The position numbers were made by a program, and so were the translations under genes. 64,000 nucleotides of DNA, from contig CAXXGJ010000038.1 of the NCBI GenBank assembly GCA_963677895.2, positions 256,001 through 320,000 of the forward strand. Direction: 5' to 3'. Positions within the stretch are counted from its first letter, which is position 1. The number at the start of each line of letters is the position of its first letter. The notes under the pieces were generated by a model. It did not search any database, had not been told where the DNA came from, and was given only the letters and a program-made list of their open reading frames with translations. Positions 54,484 through 63,015 of the stretch are shown here, piece after piece. This DNA is from Treponemataceae bacterium. GTDB lineage: Bacteria; Spirochaetota; Spirochaetia; Treponematales; Rectinemataceae.

Positions 54484-56859
54484 TCAGCCGATCTCGCCGT
54501 CGAGCACGGTCTGGAGCTTGAGCGGATTGCCGTCGACGCTGAGACGGGCGGAACCTGCCTGGGCATAGCCGGACTTGGCCGCCAGCGGTACGGAGAAGAA
54601 AGCGTCCACGTCGATCTGGGCTTCGGCGGGACCTTCGGCTTTCATCCCTTCAAGCGAGACGGGCGTTCCCGGCGCGGCCCAGGGAGCGCTCAACACCTCC
54701 ACCGCTTCCTTGCCGTCTGGTCCGGAAAGCGATGCAGCGAGAAGCATTCCCTTCGACTCCACACCTCGCAGTTTCGCGGGCTTCAGGTTGTCGACGAGGA
54801 TGATGTGCTTGCCGAGGAGTTCCTCTTCTTTATAGAAAGGCACGAGGCCGGATACGATCACGCGTTCTACGCCGGAGCCGTCGTCGAGGGTTTCAATATA
54901 GAGCTTGTCCGCCTTGGGATGGCGTTCTATCTTGACGATTTTCGCCACCTTAAGGGCGATGAGCTTAAGAAAGCGCTGCTCCACGGGCAAATCCGCGTAG
55001 GGTATAGCCTTGGGAGCCGGTGCTTCCTTGGCGGCGGGCGCGTTTGCAGCGGCCGCGTTTGCTGCGGACGCGTTCACAGCGGCCGCGGGCTTGGCGTCAG
55101 GGGCAGGTGCCTTGGCGTCGGGGGCTGGTACCTTCACGTCAGAGACCGGCGCCTTCGCGTCGCCTGCCGCTAAATCCCTGTCGGCTCTTTCCTTCTGCGA
55201 GCCCGAATAGCGCTCGCGCAGGGTCGCGATATATTTTTCATCCAGCTTGGCGAACAGCACGTCGGGTGTCTTCACTTCCGAAAGCCCCTCCGTCTTGCCG
55301 AGGACGGACCAGTCGAGGCCGCCTTGGCCCAGTTTCTGCCCAAGCATCGCCGCGAGCTTTTCGGCGGCGTGGGGCATATAGGGCTGGGTGAGCACGGCGA
55401 TGTCCCTGAGGATGTAGCAGAGGTCCGACACGAGGGAGGCCGCCGCTTCCGGATCGGAAATCCTGGTTTTCCACGGCGCGCCGTCCTGGAAACGCTTGTT
55501 CGCGATATCGGACAGCTCGAAAATGGCGCGGAAGGCTTCGCGCAGGTCAGCCCTCTCCAGGGAAGCGGTGATTCTCGCCTCGATCTCCTTCGCCCTTTCC
55601 CAGAACTCCGCATCGGGCTTGCCTGCGGGGATCGCTCCCTCGTAGTAACGCGAGACGAAGGTCAGGGTGCGGTTGGCCAGGTTGCCGAGGTTGCCGATGA
55701 GTTCGCCGTTCACTTTTTCCAGGAAATCGGACCAGGTGAAGGTGTAGTCCGAAGTCTCGGGTCGGTTCCAGAAAATATAGAATCGCCACACGTCGGCCGG
55801 GATGCCGGTCTCCATGACGTCGGTGCCGAAAACGCCGATTCCCTTGGATTTCGAGAACTTGCCCGATTCATAGTTCAGGTATTCGCTCGACGACATGTGG
55901 TGAAGCATCGTCCAGTCCCGTCCGGAGCCCAGGAGGCTGGAGGTGAATATGACTGTATGGAAGGGAATGTTGTCCTTGCCGATGAACTGGAAGAGGTCGA
56001 CGTTCTCGGGATTCTGCCACCAGGATTTCCAGTCGAAGCCCTTTTCGGCCGCGAGTCCCGCCGTCATCGAAATGTAGCCGATGGGGGCGTCGAACCAGAC
56101 GTAGAATACCTTGTCCTCGTAGCCTTTCAGGGGAACGGGAATGCCCCATTTCAGGTCCCGGGTGATGGCGCGAGCCTTGAGGCCGTCCCTCAGCCAGGCC
56201 TGGGTCATCTGGACGGCGTTGTTGGACCAGAATCCCTTCTCGCTCGCTTCCCTGATCCAGGGTTCGAGCTTGGGCTTAATGGCCGGCAGGTCGATGTAGA
56301 GATGCGTCGTGGCCTTGAGATGAGGCGTGGCGCCGCAGCTGGAACATTTGGGGTTGATGAGCTCGGTAGGCTCGAGAAGCTTGCCGCAGTGCTCGCACTG
56401 GTCGCCCCGGGCACCGTCGTAGCCGCAGGAGGGACAGGTTCCTTTGACGTAGCGGTCGGCCAGGAACCTTCCGCAGGAATCGCAGTACAGCTGTTCTATG
56501 GTCTGGCTTTTTATGTAGCCGTTCTTTTCGAGATCGAGGAAGATCGATTGCGTTATGGCGGTCTGTTCTGGCGCCGATGTGCGCCCGAACTTGTCGAAGG
56601 AGATGCCGAACCATGAATAAATATCGCGGTGGAGGGCGTGGAATCTGTCACAGAGCTCGCGGGGAGTAATGCCCTCTTCCTGCGCCTTCGTCTCGGTGGC
56701 GGTGCCGTATTCGTCGGTTCCGCAGATATAGAGGGTATCGTAGCCCCTCAGGCGGCAGAATCTGGCGAACACGTCGGCCGAAAGTACTTGTATGAGGTTC
56801 CCCAGATGGGGGACGTTGTTCACATAGGGCAGCGCCGAAGTGATTAGTCTGCGTTTCAT
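54484..56859 (-). CDS. metG: Methionyl-tRNA synthetase with C-terminal tRNA-binding domain
   Basis: SALPYVNNVPHLGN, two zinc knuckles, YVWFDA, KFSKS, C-terminal HPKADKL...SKGMLLAA. Confidence 0.97.
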   Translation of the reverse strand: MKRRLITSALPYVNNVPHLGNLIQVLSADVFARFCRLRGYDTLYICGTDEYGTATETKAQEEGITPRELCDRFHALHRDIYSWFGISFDKFGRTSAPEQTAITQSIFLDLEKNGYIKSQTIEQLYCDSCGRFLADRYVKGTCPSCGYDGARGDQCEHCGKLLEPTELINPKCSSCGATPHLKATTHLYIDLPAIKPKLEPWIREASEKGFWSNNAVQMTQAWLRDGLKARAITRDLKWGIPVPLKGYEDKVFYVWFDAPIGYISMTAGLAAEKGFDWKSWWQNPENVDLFQFIGKDNIPFHTVIFTSSLLGSGRDWTMLHHMSSSEYLNYESGKFSKSKGIGVFGTDVMETGIPADVWRFYIFWNRPETSDYTFTWSDFLEKVNGELIGNLGNLANRTLTFVSRYYEGAIPAGKPDAEFWERAKEIEARITASLERADLREAFRAIFELSDIANKRFQDGAPWKTRISDPEAAASLVSDLCYILRDIAVLTQPYMPHAAEKLAAMLGQKLGQGGLDWSVLGKTEGLSEVKTPDVLFAKLDEKYIATLRERYSGSQKERADRDLAAGDAKAPVSDVKVPAPDAKAPAPDAKPAAAVNASAANAAAANAPAAKEAPAPKAIPYADLPVEQRFLKLIALKVAKIVKIERHPKADKLYIETLDDGSGVERVIVSGLVPFYKEEELLGKHIILVDNLKPAKLRGVESKGMLLAASLSGPDGKEAVEVLSAPWAAPGTPVSLEGMKAEGPAEAQIDVDAFFSVPLAAKSGYAQAGSARLSVDGNPLKLQTVLDGEIG

Positions 56860-57237: not shown

Positions 57238-57870
57238 ATGATTTCCAAAAACTGCAGGGCCGTCCTTGGCTGCCTCGCCATGATGATTCTGATGACTTCC
57301 TGCGTCGGCATCGATACGAAGGTCAAGATTTCGGAGAATGGTTCGGGGAAAGTCACCGCCGAGTACAGGCTTTCCGAGGAACTTGTCTCCTTCGGGGAAC
57401 TGGAGGCCAACAAGGCCATGCTTCCCGTCCCGCTGACGAGGGCCGATGTAGAGAACAGCCTCAGGGGCGTAAAGGGATTGGCGCTGGATTCGTGGTCCAG
57501 CAGAAAGGATGGCACGGACCTCCTCATCAAGACCGTGATATCCTTCGACAGTCTGGACGCCTTCATGCGCTATCTGGATCCTAAGGGAGAGCTCGCGAAG
57601 CACAGCCAGGACTCGAGCGGGCACCATATCGTCTTCACCGTGGGCGAGAGCCTTCCCACCTTCGATGCCGACATGAAGCAGATCGCCCAGGAAGCCTTTG
57701 CCTCCTATACCTTCAAATTCGCCGTCGAACTGCCCTCGCCCATCAAGGAAGCGACATCACAGCATCCGGCCGTCGCGGTGCGGCAGGAAGGCAATACGGC
57801 GATCTTCGAAGGGCAGATGAAGGACATTGTCGCGAGCGAAATCCCCCCGTCAATGAGGCTTTCCTGGTAG
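57238..57870 (+). CDS. Putative lipoprotein
   Basis: MISKNCRAVLGCLAMMILMTSC lipobox-like signal; AAGGGG upstream; ENGSGK..Y pattern. Confidence 0.7.
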   Translation: MISKNCRAVLGCLAMMILMTSCVGIDTKVKISENGSGKVTAEYRLSEELVSFGELEANKAMLPVPLTRADVENSLRGVKGLALDSWSSRKDGTDLLIKTVISFDSLDAFMRYLDPKGELAKHSQDSSGHHIVFTVGESLPTFDADMKQIAQEAFASYTFKFAVELPSPIKEATSQHPAVAVRQEGNTAIFEGQMKDIVASEIPPSMRLSW

Positions 57871-59019
57871 GAATTTTGCCCTTACAAGTTTGCCGGCACC
57901 CTTTCTGCCTATTTCCTGCGCCACCCTGCGCACTTCCTCCGATTTGCCGTTTTGGGGCGCGAAGAGCTGGCCTTGGAGACAGGCGCCTTTCTGGAGCCTG
58001 TGCAGACCAGCGCCTACGAGACGCAGGGGATTTTTTCCGTCCCAATTCCTGTCGAGCAGCATGATCGCGTCGTCGTAGATTTCGTCGGCGGAGGAATAAG
58101 GTTCCGCTTTCGTGCACTGCCGGGAGATCGACGAGAAATCGCCGAAACGAAGCTTGAGGTCCAGCGTGCAGGACCAGGTTCCTTCATCGCACATCCGGGC
58201 CGCCAGATCGTCGGCGAGCATGCGCAGTACGTCGCACACCGCTTCCCTGTCTGTGGTATCCCTCTCGAACGTGCGCTCGCCGCTCATCGACTGCGACTTG
58301 GTCTCGCCCGAAAAAATTCCAGGATCCTCGCCCCTCGCCGCGGCGAAGAGAAATGCCGCGCCGGCCTTTCCGAACTTCGACTCCAGAATGGAAAGCGAGA
58401 TTTCCTGAAGTCCGGCTATCGTGGTAATTCCTATATCCTTCAAGGATTTTCTGGTTTTCTCGCCGGCCCCCCATAATTTTTCCAGAGGGAGCGAACTCAT
58501 GAACTCCATTTCGGAGCCCTCGGGAACAAAGACGAATCCATCGGGTTTCCGGATTCCCGAAGCGATCTTCGCCACATATCGGTTGGCGCTTGCGCCTATC
58601 GAAACGGTCAGCCCCGTTTCATCGAAAATATTTTTCTTTATCGCAGCCGACGCGCTCTCCGGTCCGCCCCATAGGCGTTGGGTTCCCGTCATGTCGAGCA
58701 TGGCTTCGTCTATGGAAATCTGCATGGTGTCGGGAGTGAAACCCGTCAGAATGTTCATTATTTGCCGGGAAACCTCCGAGTATCGCCGCATCCGTACCGG
58801 AAGATAAATGCCTTGGGGACAAAGCTTGAAAGCCTGGGAAATGGGCATGGCGGAATGCAGGCCGAACGCTCTGGCCTCGTAGGAACAGGTCGAAACTACG
58901 CCGCGATGTCCCGGCGCCGCGCCGACTATCAGCGGTTTTCCCTTATATTCGGGATGGTCGCATTGCTCCACCGAGGCGAAAAAAGCGTCGAGGTCGACGT
59001 GGAAAAATATATGCTTCAC
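57850..59019 (-). CDS. dinB: DNA polymerase IV
   Basis: HVDLDAFFASVE, CSYEARAFG, SIDEA, KPDG. Confidence 0.95.
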   Translation of the reverse strand: MKHIFFHVDLDAFFASVEQCDHPEYKGKPLIVGAAPGHRGVVSTCSYEARAFGLHSAMPISQAFKLCPQGIYLPVRMRRYSEVSRQIMNILTGFTPDTMQISIDEAMLDMTGTQRLWGGPESASAAIKKNIFDETGLTVSIGASANRYVAKIASGIRKPDGFVFVPEGSEMEFMSSLPLEKLWGAGEKTRKSLKDIGITTIAGLQEISLSILESKFGKAGAAFLFAAARGEDPGIFSGETKSQSMSGERTFERDTTDREAVCDVLRMLADDLAARMCDEGTWSCTLDLKLRFGDFSSISRQCTKAEPYSSADEIYDDAIMLLDRNWDGKNPLRLVGAGLHRLQKGACLQGQLFAPQNGKSEEVRRVAQEIGRKGAGKLVRAKFLPGKPH

Positions 59020-59095: not shown

Positions 59096-59124
59096 TTGAC
59101 ATAGAGCTTTCTTTCTATTAGTTT
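59096..59124 (+). promoter_or_regulatory. Sigma70-type promoter of ppdK
   Basis: TTGACA-17-TAGTTT. Confidence 0.6.
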
Positions 59125-59209
59125 ACTCCAGTGTGATTTGAACTAAGCAAATCGCTTTTCATGCGAAGCATTGCTTCGCGATTCATTTTCCTTTCGGAGG
59201 ATATGCCTA

Positions 59210-62200
59210 ATGGCTAAAAAGAAATTCGTGTACGCGTTTGGAAGCGGTATCGCAGAGGGCGCCGGAATGAGCAAAGACATTCTCGGCGGCAAAGGCGCCG
59301 GACTCATGGAGATGACCAAGATCGGTCTTCCCGTTCCCGCCGGCTTTACGATCAGCATTCCCTCCTGTGAGGAGTATTTCAAGGCCGGACGCAAACTCCC
59401 GAAGGCGATCGTCGACGAAGTGAAAACCGCCGTCATAAAGCTGGAAAAAATGGTCGGCAAGAAACTCGGCGATTCCAAGGATCCCCTCCTCGTCTCCGTC
59501 CGCTCAGGCGCGGCGCGCTCCATGCCCGGCATGCTCGAGACTATCCTCAACCTCGGCCTCAACGACGAATCCGTTCAGGGTCTCGCCGCCGTCACGAATA
59601 ATCCCCGTTTCGCCTACGACAGCTACCGCCGCTTCATCCAGATGTATTCCACCACGGCCATGGGGCTTTCCAAAGAGCCTATGGAAGAAATGCTAAGCGA
59701 GATGAAGAGCAAGCTCGGATTCAAGAACGACACCGAACTCAGCGCCGACAACCTCAAGGAACTCTGCGAGGAATTCAAGGCGTTTTATAAGAAAAACAAG
59801 AAAGATGATTTCCCGCAGGATCCGATGGAACAGCTCTGGGGCGCCATCGACGCCGTCTTCAATTCATGGGAAGCGGACAAGTCCGTAACCTACCGCCGCG
59901 TCGAGAAAATCACCGACCTCAAGGGCACCGCCGTGAACGTCGTGCAGATGGTGTTCGGCAACAAAGGCGACAACTCCGGCACCGGCGTATGCTTTACCCG
60001 CGACCCCAACTCCGGCGAGAACGTTTTCTACGGTGACTGCCTCATCAACGCCCAGGGCGAAGATGTCGTCGCGGGAATCCGCACGCCCATGAAGCTCGCC
60101 GAACTCGGCACCAAGCTTCCCAAGGCTTACAAACAGCTACTCAAGGTCCGTAAGACCCTCGAGAAGAACTTCAAGGAAATGCAGGACCTCGAGTTCACGA
60201 TTGAGGACGAGAAGCTCTACATGCTTCAGTGCCGCACCGGCAAGCGCCTTCCCTCCGCGGCCTTCAAGATCGCGGTGGATATGGTCAACGAAGGACTCAT
60301 CACAAAGGCGGAAGCCATTTCCCGCATAAGCCCCGAGCAGATCGAGGGCGTCTTCTATCCCATCATCGACGTCGCCGCCACCGGCGCCGCCAGGCTCAAG
60401 GAACTGAAGCTCGCCACGGGCATCGACGCCGTCCCCGGCGCCGCCGCGGGCAAGCTCGTGTTCAACGCCGCCGACGCCGAAGCCATGGCTCTGGCCGGCG
60501 AGAAGACCATTCTCATCCGCCGCGAAACCAGCCCCGAAGACGTCGGCGGCATGTTCGCCGCCCAGGGCATCCTCACCGCGACTGGCGGCAAGACATCCCA
60601 CGCGGCCGTCGTGGCCCGCGGATGGGGCAAGTGCTGCATCGTCGGCTGCGAAGCCCTCGATATCGACGAGAAGGCCAAGACCGTAAAAGTCGGCGGCAAG
60701 ATTCTCAAACAGGGCGATGAAGTGACCATCAACGGCACCACCGGCGACGTATTCATCAGCGCTCTCCCCCTGAAAAAGCCCGAACAGACCAAGGAATTCA
60801 AGACGCTGCTTGGCTGGTGCGACGAAATTCGCACCCTCAAGGTCCGCACCAACGCGGACACGCCCCACGACGCTCAGAAGGCTGTCGAGCTCGGCGCCGA
60901 AGGCATCGGCCTCTGCCGCACCGAACACATGTTCTTCAAGGATTTCAAAGTCCCCGCCAATTCGGAAAAGCGCCAGCTCGCCATCCAGGAAATGATCATC
61001 GCCGACGATGTCGAAACCCGCAAGAAGGCGCTCGCCAAGCTCCTTCCCTTCCAGCAGGGCGATTTCGAGGGCATCTTCGAGGCCATGAACGGCAAGCCCG
61101 TCACCATCCGCCTCATCGATCCTCCCCTTCACGAGTTCACGCCCAAAGATGACGCGGGCGTCGACAAGCTCGCCAAGATCACCGGCAAGACCCCCGAATT
61201 CATAAGGATGCGCTGCGACCAGCTCCATGAGTCCAACCCCATGCTCGGCCACCGCGGATGCCGCCTCTGCATCACCTATCCCGAGATTCTCGACATGCAG
61301 GTGACCGCCATCATCCAGGCCGCCGTCAACATGGAGAAGAAGGGCATCAAAGTGCTCCCCGAGATCATGATCCCCCTCACCATCGACAAGAAAGAGTTCA
61401 AGATCCTCGCCGATCAGACGAGGGGCGTGGCCGATCCCATCATCGCCAAGGCAAAATCCAAGATCACCTACATGGTCGGCACGATGATCGAGATTCCCCG
61501 CGCCGCCCTCCTCGCCGACGAGATCGCCGAGGAAGCGGAATTCTTCTCCTTCGGGACGAACGACCTCACCCAGATGACCTTAGGCCTCTCGCGCGACGAC
61601 GCCGGCCGATTCCTCCCCGATTATGTTAAGGCCGAGAAAGAAGGCGGAAAAGAGATCTTCGCGAACGATCCTTTCGTAAGCATCGACCAGGCAGGCGTGG
61701 GCAAGCTCGTGAAAATGGGCATAGCCGGCGGCCGCTCGACGCGCAAGAATCTCAAGGTTGGCATCTGCGGAGAACACGGCGGCGAAGCCAAATCCGTCAA
61801 GTTCTGCCACGCCGCGGGAATGAACTACGTTTCCTGCTCGCCTTTCCGCGTGCCTATCGCCCGCCTAGCGGCCGCCCAGGCCGTGATCGAGGAAAAAGCC
61901 GCTGCCAAGGCCGTCAAGACTGTAAAAGCGCCGGCTAAAAAGGCAAGCTCCGCCGCCAAAAAAGTCGCCGTGAAAGCGGCCGACGTCAAGGCAAAACGCG
62001 GCAGACCGGCCGCCAAAGCCGAAAAAGCCATGGCCCCGGCCAAGGCATCGAAAACCCTCAAGGCAGCCAAAGTCTCCAAGACCGGCGCAAAACCGGCGGC
62101 GAAAGCCCCCGCCAAGAAAGCCATTGCCAAGAAAGCCGCTGTCCGAAAAACCCCCGTCAAAGCGGCGGTTAACGAGGTTAAATCGACTCGAGGAAGAAAG

Positions 62201-62404
62201 CCGACTGCAGTAAAAGCGCTGTCGACCAAGACGCCCGCCGTCAAGAAGACGGTCAAGACCGCCGCCAAGGCCGCAGTCAAGACCGCTGTGAAAACAGCAG
62301 CCAAAACTCCGGCTAAAGCAGCCGCGAAGACCAAGAAAACCGCGGCGGCGGTTTCCACGAAACGCCATGTTGGCAGGCCCAAGGGAACGTCCAAGAAATC
62401 ATGA
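59210..62404 (+). CDS. ppdK: Pyruvate, phosphate dikinase with a long basic C-terminal tail
   Basis: LGGKGAGL, LLVSVRSGA, catalytic His in GGKTSHAAVVAR, GIGLCRTEHMF, FSFGTNDLTQ, GICGEHGG; GGAGG before ATG 59210. Confidence 0.97.
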   Translation: MAKKKFVYAFGSGIAEGAGMSKDILGGKGAGLMEMTKIGLPVPAGFTISIPSCEEYFKAGRKLPKAIVDEVKTAVIKLEKMVGKKLGDSKDPLLVSVRSGAARSMPGMLETILNLGLNDESVQGLAAVTNNPRFAYDSYRRFIQMYSTTAMGLSKEPMEEMLSEMKSKLGFKNDTELSADNLKELCEEFKAFYKKNKKDDFPQDPMEQLWGAIDAVFNSWEADKSVTYRRVEKITDLKGTAVNVVQMVFGNKGDNSGTGVCFTRDPNSGENVFYGDCLINAQGEDVVAGIRTPMKLAELGTKLPKAYKQLLKVRKTLEKNFKEMQDLEFTIEDEKLYMLQCRTGKRLPSAAFKIAVDMVNEGLITKAEAISRISPEQIEGVFYPIIDVAATGAARLKELKLATGIDAVPGAAAGKLVFNAADAEAMALAGEKTILIRRETSPEDVGGMFAAQGILTATGGKTSHAAVVARGWGKCCIVGCEALDIDEKAKTVKVGGKILKQGDEVTINGTTGDVFISALPLKKPEQTKEFKTLLGWCDEIRTLKVRTNADTPHDAQKAVELGAEGIGLCRTEHMFFKDFKVPANSEKRQLAIQEMIIADDVETRKKALAKLLPFQQGDFEGIFEAMNGKPVTIRLIDPPLHEFTPKDDAGVDKLAKITGKTPEFIRMRCDQLHESNPMLGHRGCRLCITYPEILDMQVTAIIQAAVNMEKKGIKVLPEIMIPLTIDKKEFKILADQTRGVADPIIAKAKSKITYMVGTMIEIPRAALLADEIAEEAEFFSFGTNDLTQMTLGLSRDDAGRFLPDYVKAEKEGGKEIFANDPFVSIDQAGVGKLVKMGIAGGRSTRKNLKVGICGEHGGEAKSVKFCHAAGMNYVSCSPFRVPIARLAAAQAVIEEKAAAKAVKTVKAPAKKASSAAKKVAVKAADVKAKRGRPAAKAEKAMAPAKASKTLKAAKVSKTGAKPAAKAPAKKAIAKKAAVRKTPVKAAVNEVKSTRGRKPTAVKALSTKTPAVKKTVKTAAKAAVKTAVKTAAKTPAKAAAKTKKTAAAVSTKRHVGRPKGTSKKS

Positions 62405-62429
62405 GGCTTGATGGCTCCATGTAGAAACT

Positions 62430-62466
62430 AAAAAAGGGTTGTCCGGAAACGGACAACCCTTTTTTT
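62430..62466. terminator. Bidirectional intrinsic terminator between ppdK and dtd
   Basis: AAAAAAGGGTTGTCCG-GAAA-CGGACAACCCTTTTTTT. Confidence 0.92.
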
Positions 62467-62495
62467 ATTCCGGCGACCTCGCCTCGGCAATTTTC

Positions 62496-62957
62496 CTAAA
62501 AAAGTTTTTTGGAATCGAGGAGGATAGTGATGGGGCCCTCGTTCACGTAGGCGACGCGCATGATTTCCCCGAAGCGGCCTGTCTCGACACGGATTCCCCC
62601 GGCCGAGAGCGATCGGCAAAAATGTTCATAGAGGCTGAAAGCCGCATCGTTTCCGGCCGCGTCGGAGTAAGACGGCCGCCTTCCCTTCCTCGCGTCCGCA
62701 TAGAGGGTGAACTGGGAAACCGCTAAAACCCCATAGCCGAGATCGACGAGGGATAGATTCATTTTTTCCTCATCGTCCATGAATATCCGGAGATGGGCGA
62801 CCTTGTCCGCCAGGTATTCGGCGTCCGTTTCGGAATCGTCCTTGCCCACGCCCAGATACACAAGAAGCCCCTGATCGATGGCTCCGGCGATAGCGACGTT
62901 ATCGGCCTCCCCTATTGTCACGCTCGCCGAGGATACTCTCTGTACGACGGCTCTCAT
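62496..62957 (-). CDS. dtd: D-aminoacyl-tRNA deacylase
   Basis: MRAVVQRV, SQFTLYAD, KGRRPS, NEGPIT; start set at ATG 62957. Confidence 0.96.
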   Translation of the reverse strand: MRAVVQRVSSASVTIGEADNVAIAGAIDQGLLVYLGVGKDDSETDAEYLADKVAHLRIFMDDEEKMNLSLVDLGYGVLAVSQFTLYADARKGRRPSYSDAAGNDAAFSLYEHFCRSLSAGGIRVETGRFGEIMRVAYVNEGPITILLDSKKLF

Positions 62958-63015
62958 CGCTTCGCCCTCTTGGGGAAAGCTTTCGACGCCTTCGCGTTCA
63001 CGATCGGGACGAGAC

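Follow-up and report, generated by a model that had tools for sequence, protein, structure and literature searches.

The closest described precedent for the protein considered here is the myxobacterial transcription factor CarD, an RNA-polymerase-binding protein whose K/A/P-rich, DNA-binding C-terminal region occurs with or without AT-hooks, depending on lineage; as presented in PMC9304148, this region is HMGA-like in Myxococcus xanthus and H1-like in Anaeromyxobacter, the AT-hooks numbering three or four in those lineages that have them. Disordered, histone-H1-like K/A/P tails are also found on the granule proteins AlgP and PhaF of Pseudomonas and PhaM of Ralstonia, where they are thought to tether polyphosphate (polyP) or polyhydroxyalkanoate (PHA) granules to the nucleoid (PMC9239181). 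The AT-hook has been reviewed as a GRP core with basic flanks in which an RGR core enters the groove, and polar or basic residues beside hook 2 of HMGA1 are described in the same review as raising DNA affinity (PMC11354804). At the phosphoenolpyruvate (PEP)-pyruvate node, PykA of Bacillus subtilis has been linked to chromosome biology, acting through its catalytic and PEP-utiliser domains rather than a basic tail (PMC9009071). Here we analyze ppdK, a pyruvate phosphate dikinase (PPDK) gene in a 64,000-nucleotide stretch of DNA (the window, meaning the whole stretch analyzed) whose affiliation with Rectinemataceae, Spirochaetota, is indicated by the source labels of homologues and records. The encoded enzyme ends in a Lys/Ala-rich tail with three AT-hook-like motifs (hooks 1 to 3, Table 1), and with moderate confidence we read this tail as one that would act as an H1/HMGA-like DNA tether on an abundant metabolic enzyme.

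The split of CarD into plain and hooked tails is mirrored in the PPDK tails described below, making CarD the nearest precedent; it differs in being a transcription factor, whereas here the tail is carried by a central-carbon enzyme and has no acidic stretch. Unlike AlgP, PhaF and PhaM, which are granule proteins with regular KPAA repeats, the PPDK has its enzyme as the cargo, irregular repeats and GRP hooks. The H1/HMGA-type module is of a known kind and its partner is new, as are the selected hooks on a PPDK tail, the exchange of the enzyme core and the existence of a cultured test organism. In a literature search that covered mostly open papers, neither a PPDK tail nor a dikinase with AT-hooks was found described.

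A basic tail with three hooks on a complete dikinase

The ppdK product passes the TIGR01828 equivalog model (1268.8 bits against a cut-off of 843.45, model positions 1-865), and its PPDK_N, mobile His and PEP-binding barrel domains stand in the correct order both in Pfam and in an AlphaFold2 model. Residues 1-890 constitute a complete PPDK, and residues 5-895 align with the three-domain core of solved canonical enzymes (EC 2.7.9.1; PDB 1KBL, 1DIK, 9PZL, 1VBG, 5JVN and 2X0S); unlike these, of which none has a 174-aa basic hooked tail, the window's protein continues, and no alignment extends beyond its residue 903. Residues K28, R98, H464 and C853 are invariant across 36 aligned PPDKs and also align with solved PPDK; we take H464 to be the catalytic His of the TSH motif, C853 the barrel Cys, and K28 and R98 the ATP-site Lys and Arg. 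A catalytic role of the TSH motif is described in PMC9009071. The protein has the sequence features expected of a PPDK, and catalysis is predicted. The gene is the sole full PPDK copy in the window's genome; many relatives (G013:C1, G006:C75, G011:C22 and others) carry a second, distant full-length PPDK-type gene (~37% identical), which this genome lacks.

The frame remains open for 174 codons after the core end (...RLAAAQ), and the 173 residues following the next Ala include 50 Ala, 45 Lys, 18 Val, 17 Thr, 10 Pro, 9 Ser, 7 Arg and 5 Gly. There is no Phe, Trp or Tyr, and three of the five acidic residues lie beyond the first four positions, giving the tail a net charge of +47 against +4 for the core. 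The last helix of the AlphaFold2 model runs to residue 905, and pLDDT is below 50 for residues 907-966 and 968-1064. Disordered, K/A/P-rich and highly positive, the tail resembles histone-H1-like bacterial tails, with no match in Pfam to the HC2 profile (PF07382) and no regular KPAA repeats; PF07382 is assigned to three of the best 120 homologues. Proteins of the HMGA and CarD type are characterized by an acidic region beside their hooks, and neither such a region nor, in Pfam, a CarD domain is seen in this PPDK.

Six of the seven tail arginines are located in the three hooks, and GR[P/K], a pattern chosen post hoc, occurs three times in the tail against a mean of 0.06 in shuffles, none of 5000 shuffles reaching three. 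The GRP core with K/R flanks is present in hooks 1 and 3, hook 2 having GRK, and the RGR core is present in hooks 1 and 2, hook 3 having VGR. The original prediction, made from the window's letters, had described a Lys/Ala/Thr/Val/Pro tail of about 170 aa after an intact set of PPDK catalytic motifs, free of aromatic residues, with three acidic residues past its first positions and a strong terminator behind it (here a 16-pair hairpin with a T-run, -25.6 kcal/mol), and in all of this it was correct. Its three AT-hook-like motifs are likewise all present, but the full RGRP core is confined to the first, with RGRKP in the second and VGRP in the third, and none attains the Pfam AT_hook cut-off.

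The tail is not an assembly artefact, because contigs from public runs span the core-tail junction (run X1, 61307-62222, with 7 differences; run X2, possibly the source sample, 61552-62500, with none) and both same-genus genomes have the tail; together with the tails of other relatives, this also rules out read-through. Run X16, labelled metatranscriptomic, with RNA only guessed, contains a 3199-nt contig of a related strain that spans 59174-62424, has two in-frame spacer deletions and ends just short of the terminator hairpin. In RNA run X17, all eight contigs placed on a 9.6-kb stretch fall within ppdK or its leader, two of them in the tail, a weak hint of a ppdK transcript including the tail, given that the run was found with ppdK and that contigs cannot prove a transcript. 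RNA run X20 yielded distant relatives only, leaving the tail uncovered, and X18 yielded small, low-depth pieces.

Conservation of the hooks and apparent exchange of the core

Tails were compared in a family set of 25 genomes including the window's own, 23 of them scorable (G010 retains the N-terminal part only and G023 a distant PPDK-type match only). A basic tail of 54-189 aa is present in all 23, in agreement with the suggestion that related spirochaetes may share it; none stops at the canonical PPDK end, a stop there having been named as evidence against the original prediction, and the alignment proposed as its check finds the GRP motifs kept and the spacers diverged. In 14 of the 23 proteins the tail closes with KR-x-[V/R]-GRP-[K/R]-G, 4-7 residues from the stop. 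Six residues never vary among these 14 terminal motifs (K, R, G, R, P and the final G), each with 2-4 codons, V is kept in 13 with four codons, and GR[P/K] exceeds shuffle expectation in every one of the tails (P at most 0.007). Spacers, by comparison, change by in-frame indels even between near-identical strains (tails of 174, 164 and 155 aa). Since six positions are invariant while codons vary and spacers drift, the hook residues are, by this pattern, under selection. The synonymous variation of the motif codons in the forward frame rules out an antisense open reading frame (ORF) at 61825-62394 as a real gene, and speaks against the terminal motif being constrained at the RNA level, which is unlikely. 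Among hook-bearing tails the shortest, which measure 40-61 aa and in several cases are labelled Rectinema, consist of two GRP hooks and a spacer only, mostly ending in KRPRGRPRGSKNK or a close variant. At locus L096, a frameshift in the AK-repeat of the PPDK tail cuts the terminal hook off the enzyme; in P0222, a close homologue, the frame is intact.

Sixteen genomes from other families of the order were also compared. Among the 15 that were scored, seven have plain K/A tails (33-163 aa) and eight the canonical end, and GR[P/K] was found in none of their PPDK tails. Two homologue lists (the best 120 each), biased in that they were picked by likeness to tailed queries, contain, among the matches listed, PPDKs labelled Planctomycetota, Bacteroidota, Acidiferrales and Chitinispirillaceae whose basic tails are short or plain, as well as separate hook repeats in P0036 and P0018. 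Basic PPDK tails as such are, judging from these matches, widespread.

The strongest likeness to a characterized hook was found in G018, whose tail end matches HMGA1 AT-hook 2 (PDB 2EZD) at 12 of 13 residues (E=0.11), the only PDB match of this tail at E up to 10, and whose tail scores 17.4 and 18.6 bits on Pfam AT_hook (PF02178), the cut-off being 17.4. The two share the GRP core, basic flanks and a trailing G-S-K-N-K run, and a G-[ST]-x-K run is kept by the family where HMGA1 hook 2 has its flanking polar and basic residues; the RGR core is also present in the terminal hooks of G018 and of Rectinema-labelled proteins. The AT-hook likeness originally proposed is hence nearly an identity in this relative, but not in the window, whose VGRP terminal and GRK middle motifs do not score on PF02178. 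The likeness of PPDK tails to HMGA1 hooks is probably convergent. When 185,579 species genomes were scanned for exact matches to K-R-x-V-G-R-P-K-G-[ST]-x-K-K, 19 loci were returned, comprising 16 in-frame PPDK ends, one PPDK with a tail frameshift, a Bryobacterales orphan and a planctomycete Peptidase_S24 protein; because the pattern was derived from these PPDKs, only its rarity elsewhere is informative. The planctomycete protein (L094:1174-2508, +; LexA/UmuD-type) has five tandem KRPVGRPKGSGKK copies N-terminal to its peptidase domain, the side on which LexA-type proteins carry their DNA-binding part, and the orphan (L088:1386-1655, -) is a 90-aa basic protein with the end motif and no Pfam family.

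The catalytic cores beneath these tails are of two types in the family, type A (A-type homologues being mostly 82-99% identical to the window's core) and type B (~68-70%), with highly supported branches placing PPDKs labelled Bacteroidota and Planctomycetota between the two. Both types adjoin dinB and/or dtd. On a tree of RpoB (29 genomes, three with partial rows; a single marker) the hook label requires two changes and the core type five, and on the PPDK-core tree the hook label requires four. The core data reject two RpoB clades, one of 10 genomes (log-likelihood lower by 719, AU p=1.7e-55) and one of four (p=6.7e-5). The core of G017 is 94-100% identical to P0007 over its first six 60-column windows and 82-95% thereafter, while the tails stay close, which marks it as a mosaic under a retained tail. 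We infer that the catalytic body was replaced repeatedly in place at the same locus, the window's type A core apparently having been acquired in this way; on the trees, the hooks follow the host lineage while the core is exchanged. Such replacement fits selection for the resident tail.

A cultured carrier is available in Rectinema cohabitans HM, whose PPDK adjoins dtd and has RGRP, RGRKP and RRGRPLGSKNK at its end, the last of them terminal. Proteomic data accompanying PMC6052044 list 72 peptides for it (75.4% coverage) and 557 MS/MS counts; GAPDH has 559 and pyruvate kinase 109, all uncorrected for length. The words 'dikinase' and 'PPDK' are absent from the main text of that source.

Possible ligands and function of the tail

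The tail hooks would bind DNA and so tie PPDK to the nucleoid, and, PPDK forming dimers, each dimer would offer two multi-hook tails that could bridge DNA. PPDK converts PEP, AMP and PPi to pyruvate, ATP and Pi; the likely purpose of the tether would be to keep the abundant enzyme on the nucleoid, a site of PPi release by polymerases, and PPDK might in addition act as a nucleoid protein. In its fullest form, which we consider doubtful, the proposal is that Rectinemataceae PPDK ranks among the most abundant glycolytic enzymes of the cell and is at once an HMGA-like chromatin protein, whose dimers would bridge AT-rich DNA through convergent AT-hooks, turn polymerase PPi into ATP on the nucleoid and couple PEP flux to chromosome structure, with a host-specific tail and an enzyme body replaced by horizontal transfer. 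How bacteria couple their chromosome to central carbon metabolism has long been an open question, and a conserved motif of DNA-binding type on an abundant PEP/PPi/ATP enzyme would offer a direct physical link. If true, this would add to CarD a second bacterial example in which H1-like tails have gained AT-hooks resembling those of eukaryotes, and the hooks are the first sequence-level clue to the ligand of basic PPDK tails.

The tethering interpretation offered with the original prediction gains from the GRP motifs persisting in relatives and from a hook likeness closer than first seen, but several observations weigh against it. The window's tail gave nothing above cut-off in Pfam, in NCBIfam or in an AT_hook scan of its own genome (17.4 bits for AT_hook in Pfam; a weak H-NS match of hook 2, E=0.09, was not counted), and a single one of 12 full-length hook-bearing PPDKs reaches the Pfam threshold (P0036, 17.7 bits). 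V replaces the first R of the groove-entering RGR core in 13 of the 14 terminal motifs. Nine of the 23 family tails lack a terminal hook and, with the tailless enzymes of other families also counted (8 of the 15 scored), the tail is dispensable; its retention may moreover be a by-product of homologous recombination crossing over inside the conserved core. None of the three HU/IHF-family genes in the genome has a basic tail, and their presence rules out the tail as a substitute for missing HU. The need for local PPi scavenging is weakened because the genome encodes a soluble pyrophosphatase-like protein of the DHHA2 family, together with a membrane pyrophosphatase and pyruvate kinase. The last of these rules out PPDK as the sole route from PEP to pyruvate, and although family I pyrophosphatase was not found in 39 of 41 genomes, the window's own included, the DHHA2-family protein defeats an argument from the lack of a soluble enzyme.

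A further point against DNA as the ligand is that extended AT-hooks are reported to bind RNA about tenfold better than DNA (PMC4615771). Were RNA bound instead, which we regard as unlikely, the enzyme would be tied to ribosomes or to RNA in bulk, the setting in which AMP and PPi, both used by PPDK, are released by aminoacyl-tRNA synthetases, or to its own leader, in a form of autoregulation. The ppdK leader has a 7-bp hairpin with both-sided changes in five of seven pairs, but its consensus comes from 11 leaders of one hook-bearing RpoB clade, the hairpin is absent from the leaders of the hook-bearing G016 and G019, and the occurrence of hairpin and hooks in one clade may reflect nothing more than descent; in Rfam no family reaches its cut-off on the leader (one chance-level match, 15.9 bits against 59). 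In the PPDK motifs, moreover, the basic residues sit immediately beside GRP, an arrangement shared with classic hooks, and the closest match is to an HMGA1 peptide in complex with DNA.

That the tail is a sequence-independent polycation, attaching PPDK to polyP granules or driving condensates with the hooks incidental, seems distinctly improbable. AlgP, with its KPAA tail, localizes to polyP granules (PMC9239181), PPK1 is encoded in the window's genome, and plain hookless basic tails are common on PPDKs labelled as several phyla; charge alone, however, leaves six invariant residues at a fixed terminal position unexplained, and the minimal tails keep two hooks while shedding most of the charge. 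It is very unlikely that the tail has no nucleic acid ligand at all and represents tolerated low-complexity growth, or serves a protein partner, a degradation tag or solubility: the in-frame spacer indels between near-identical strains, the frameshift at L096 and the many tailless PPDKs would suit such an account, which is opposed by the fixed amino acids with synonymous variation, by the GR[P/K] excess in all hook-bearing tails and by persistence across core replacement. A DNA tether is the reading retained here.

Locus architecture and genome context

Table 1. Features of the ppdK locus, with positions in the window
Feature	Position	Strand	Basis
ppdK, pyruvate phosphate dikinase with C-terminal tail, 1064 aa	59210..62404	+	ATG at 59210, TGA at 62402-62404
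Catalytic core, type A: ATP-grasp, phospho-His swivel and PEP barrel domains	59210..61879	+	Pfam, structure alignment, trees
Tail of 174 aa, rich in Lys/Ala/Val/Thr/Pro, net charge +47, with predicted disorder beyond a short extension of the helix	61880..62401	+	composition, AlphaFold2
Hook 1, KAKRGRPAAK, full RGRP core	61988..62017	+	RGRP in 11/14 hook-bearing tails
Hook 2, STRGRKPT, RGRKP variant	62183..62206	+	RGRKP also between two GRP hooks of R. cohabitans
Hook 3, KRHVGRPKGTSKKS at the terminus, a version of the end motif conserved in the family	62360..62401	+	contains KRHVGRPKG
Predicted sigma-70-type promoter of ppdK, TTGACA, 17 nt, TAGTTT	59096..59124	+	conserved -35
7-bp hairpin in predicted 5' untranslated leader of ppdK	59163..59179	+	consensus of 11 leaders
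Shine-Dalgarno GGAGG, 9 nt 5' of start codon	59196..59200	+	sequence; kept in relatives
Predicted bidirectional intrinsic terminator between ppdK and convergent dtd	62430..62466	.	fold; RNA-labelled contig end at 62424
dinB-type polymerase gene, upstream synteny marker	57850..59019	-	
dtd (D-Tyr-tRNA deacylase), downstream synteny marker	62496..62960	-	

A TTGAC-type -35 hexamer lies upstream of ppdK in 21 of 22 family loci, a second, nearer copy having been picked in G017. General consensus scans of the window missed the ppdK promoter and did not list the terminator hairpin. No AT-rich operator specific to hook lineages was seen upstream of ppdK, where the conserved element is the promoter. 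Elsewhere in the window, MetG (54484-56859, -) has an Ala/Pro-rich linker with PAPDAK- and AAANA-type repeats ahead of its C-terminal domain.

Within the genome, which is 93% complete, the PPDK regulatory kinase (PF03618) was not found, and the gene for PPi-dependent phosphofructokinase (PPi-PFK; G000:C21:64693-66322, L106) is broken into two frames and bears signs of additional indels, reflecting a frameshift or an assembly error. A filter for K/A-rich segments was passed by three of 34,336 stop-to-stop frames, namely PPDK, the N-terminus of topoisomerase I and an orphan of ~130 aa on contig C25. The topoisomerase (G000:C38:508431-510764, -) has a short Lys/Ala-rich N-terminal extension ahead of its Toprim domain. 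The orphan (G000:C25:359895-360290, equivalent to L067:2396-2791, +) consists of a conserved N-terminal stretch of ~35 aa and a K/A/P tail with a terminal KRGRPAK; it occurs in seven of 31 genomes, all hook-bearing, with six copies ending in a GRP motif and one running off its contig, and is a candidate stand-alone H1/HMGA-like nucleoid protein. A search of the ESM Atlas with the orphan gave nothing usable, and two further weak orphan matches proved to be unrelated repeats. In G023 (contig C52, L085), a 344-codon frame has a C-terminal half made up of a very long KKPAAK repeat.

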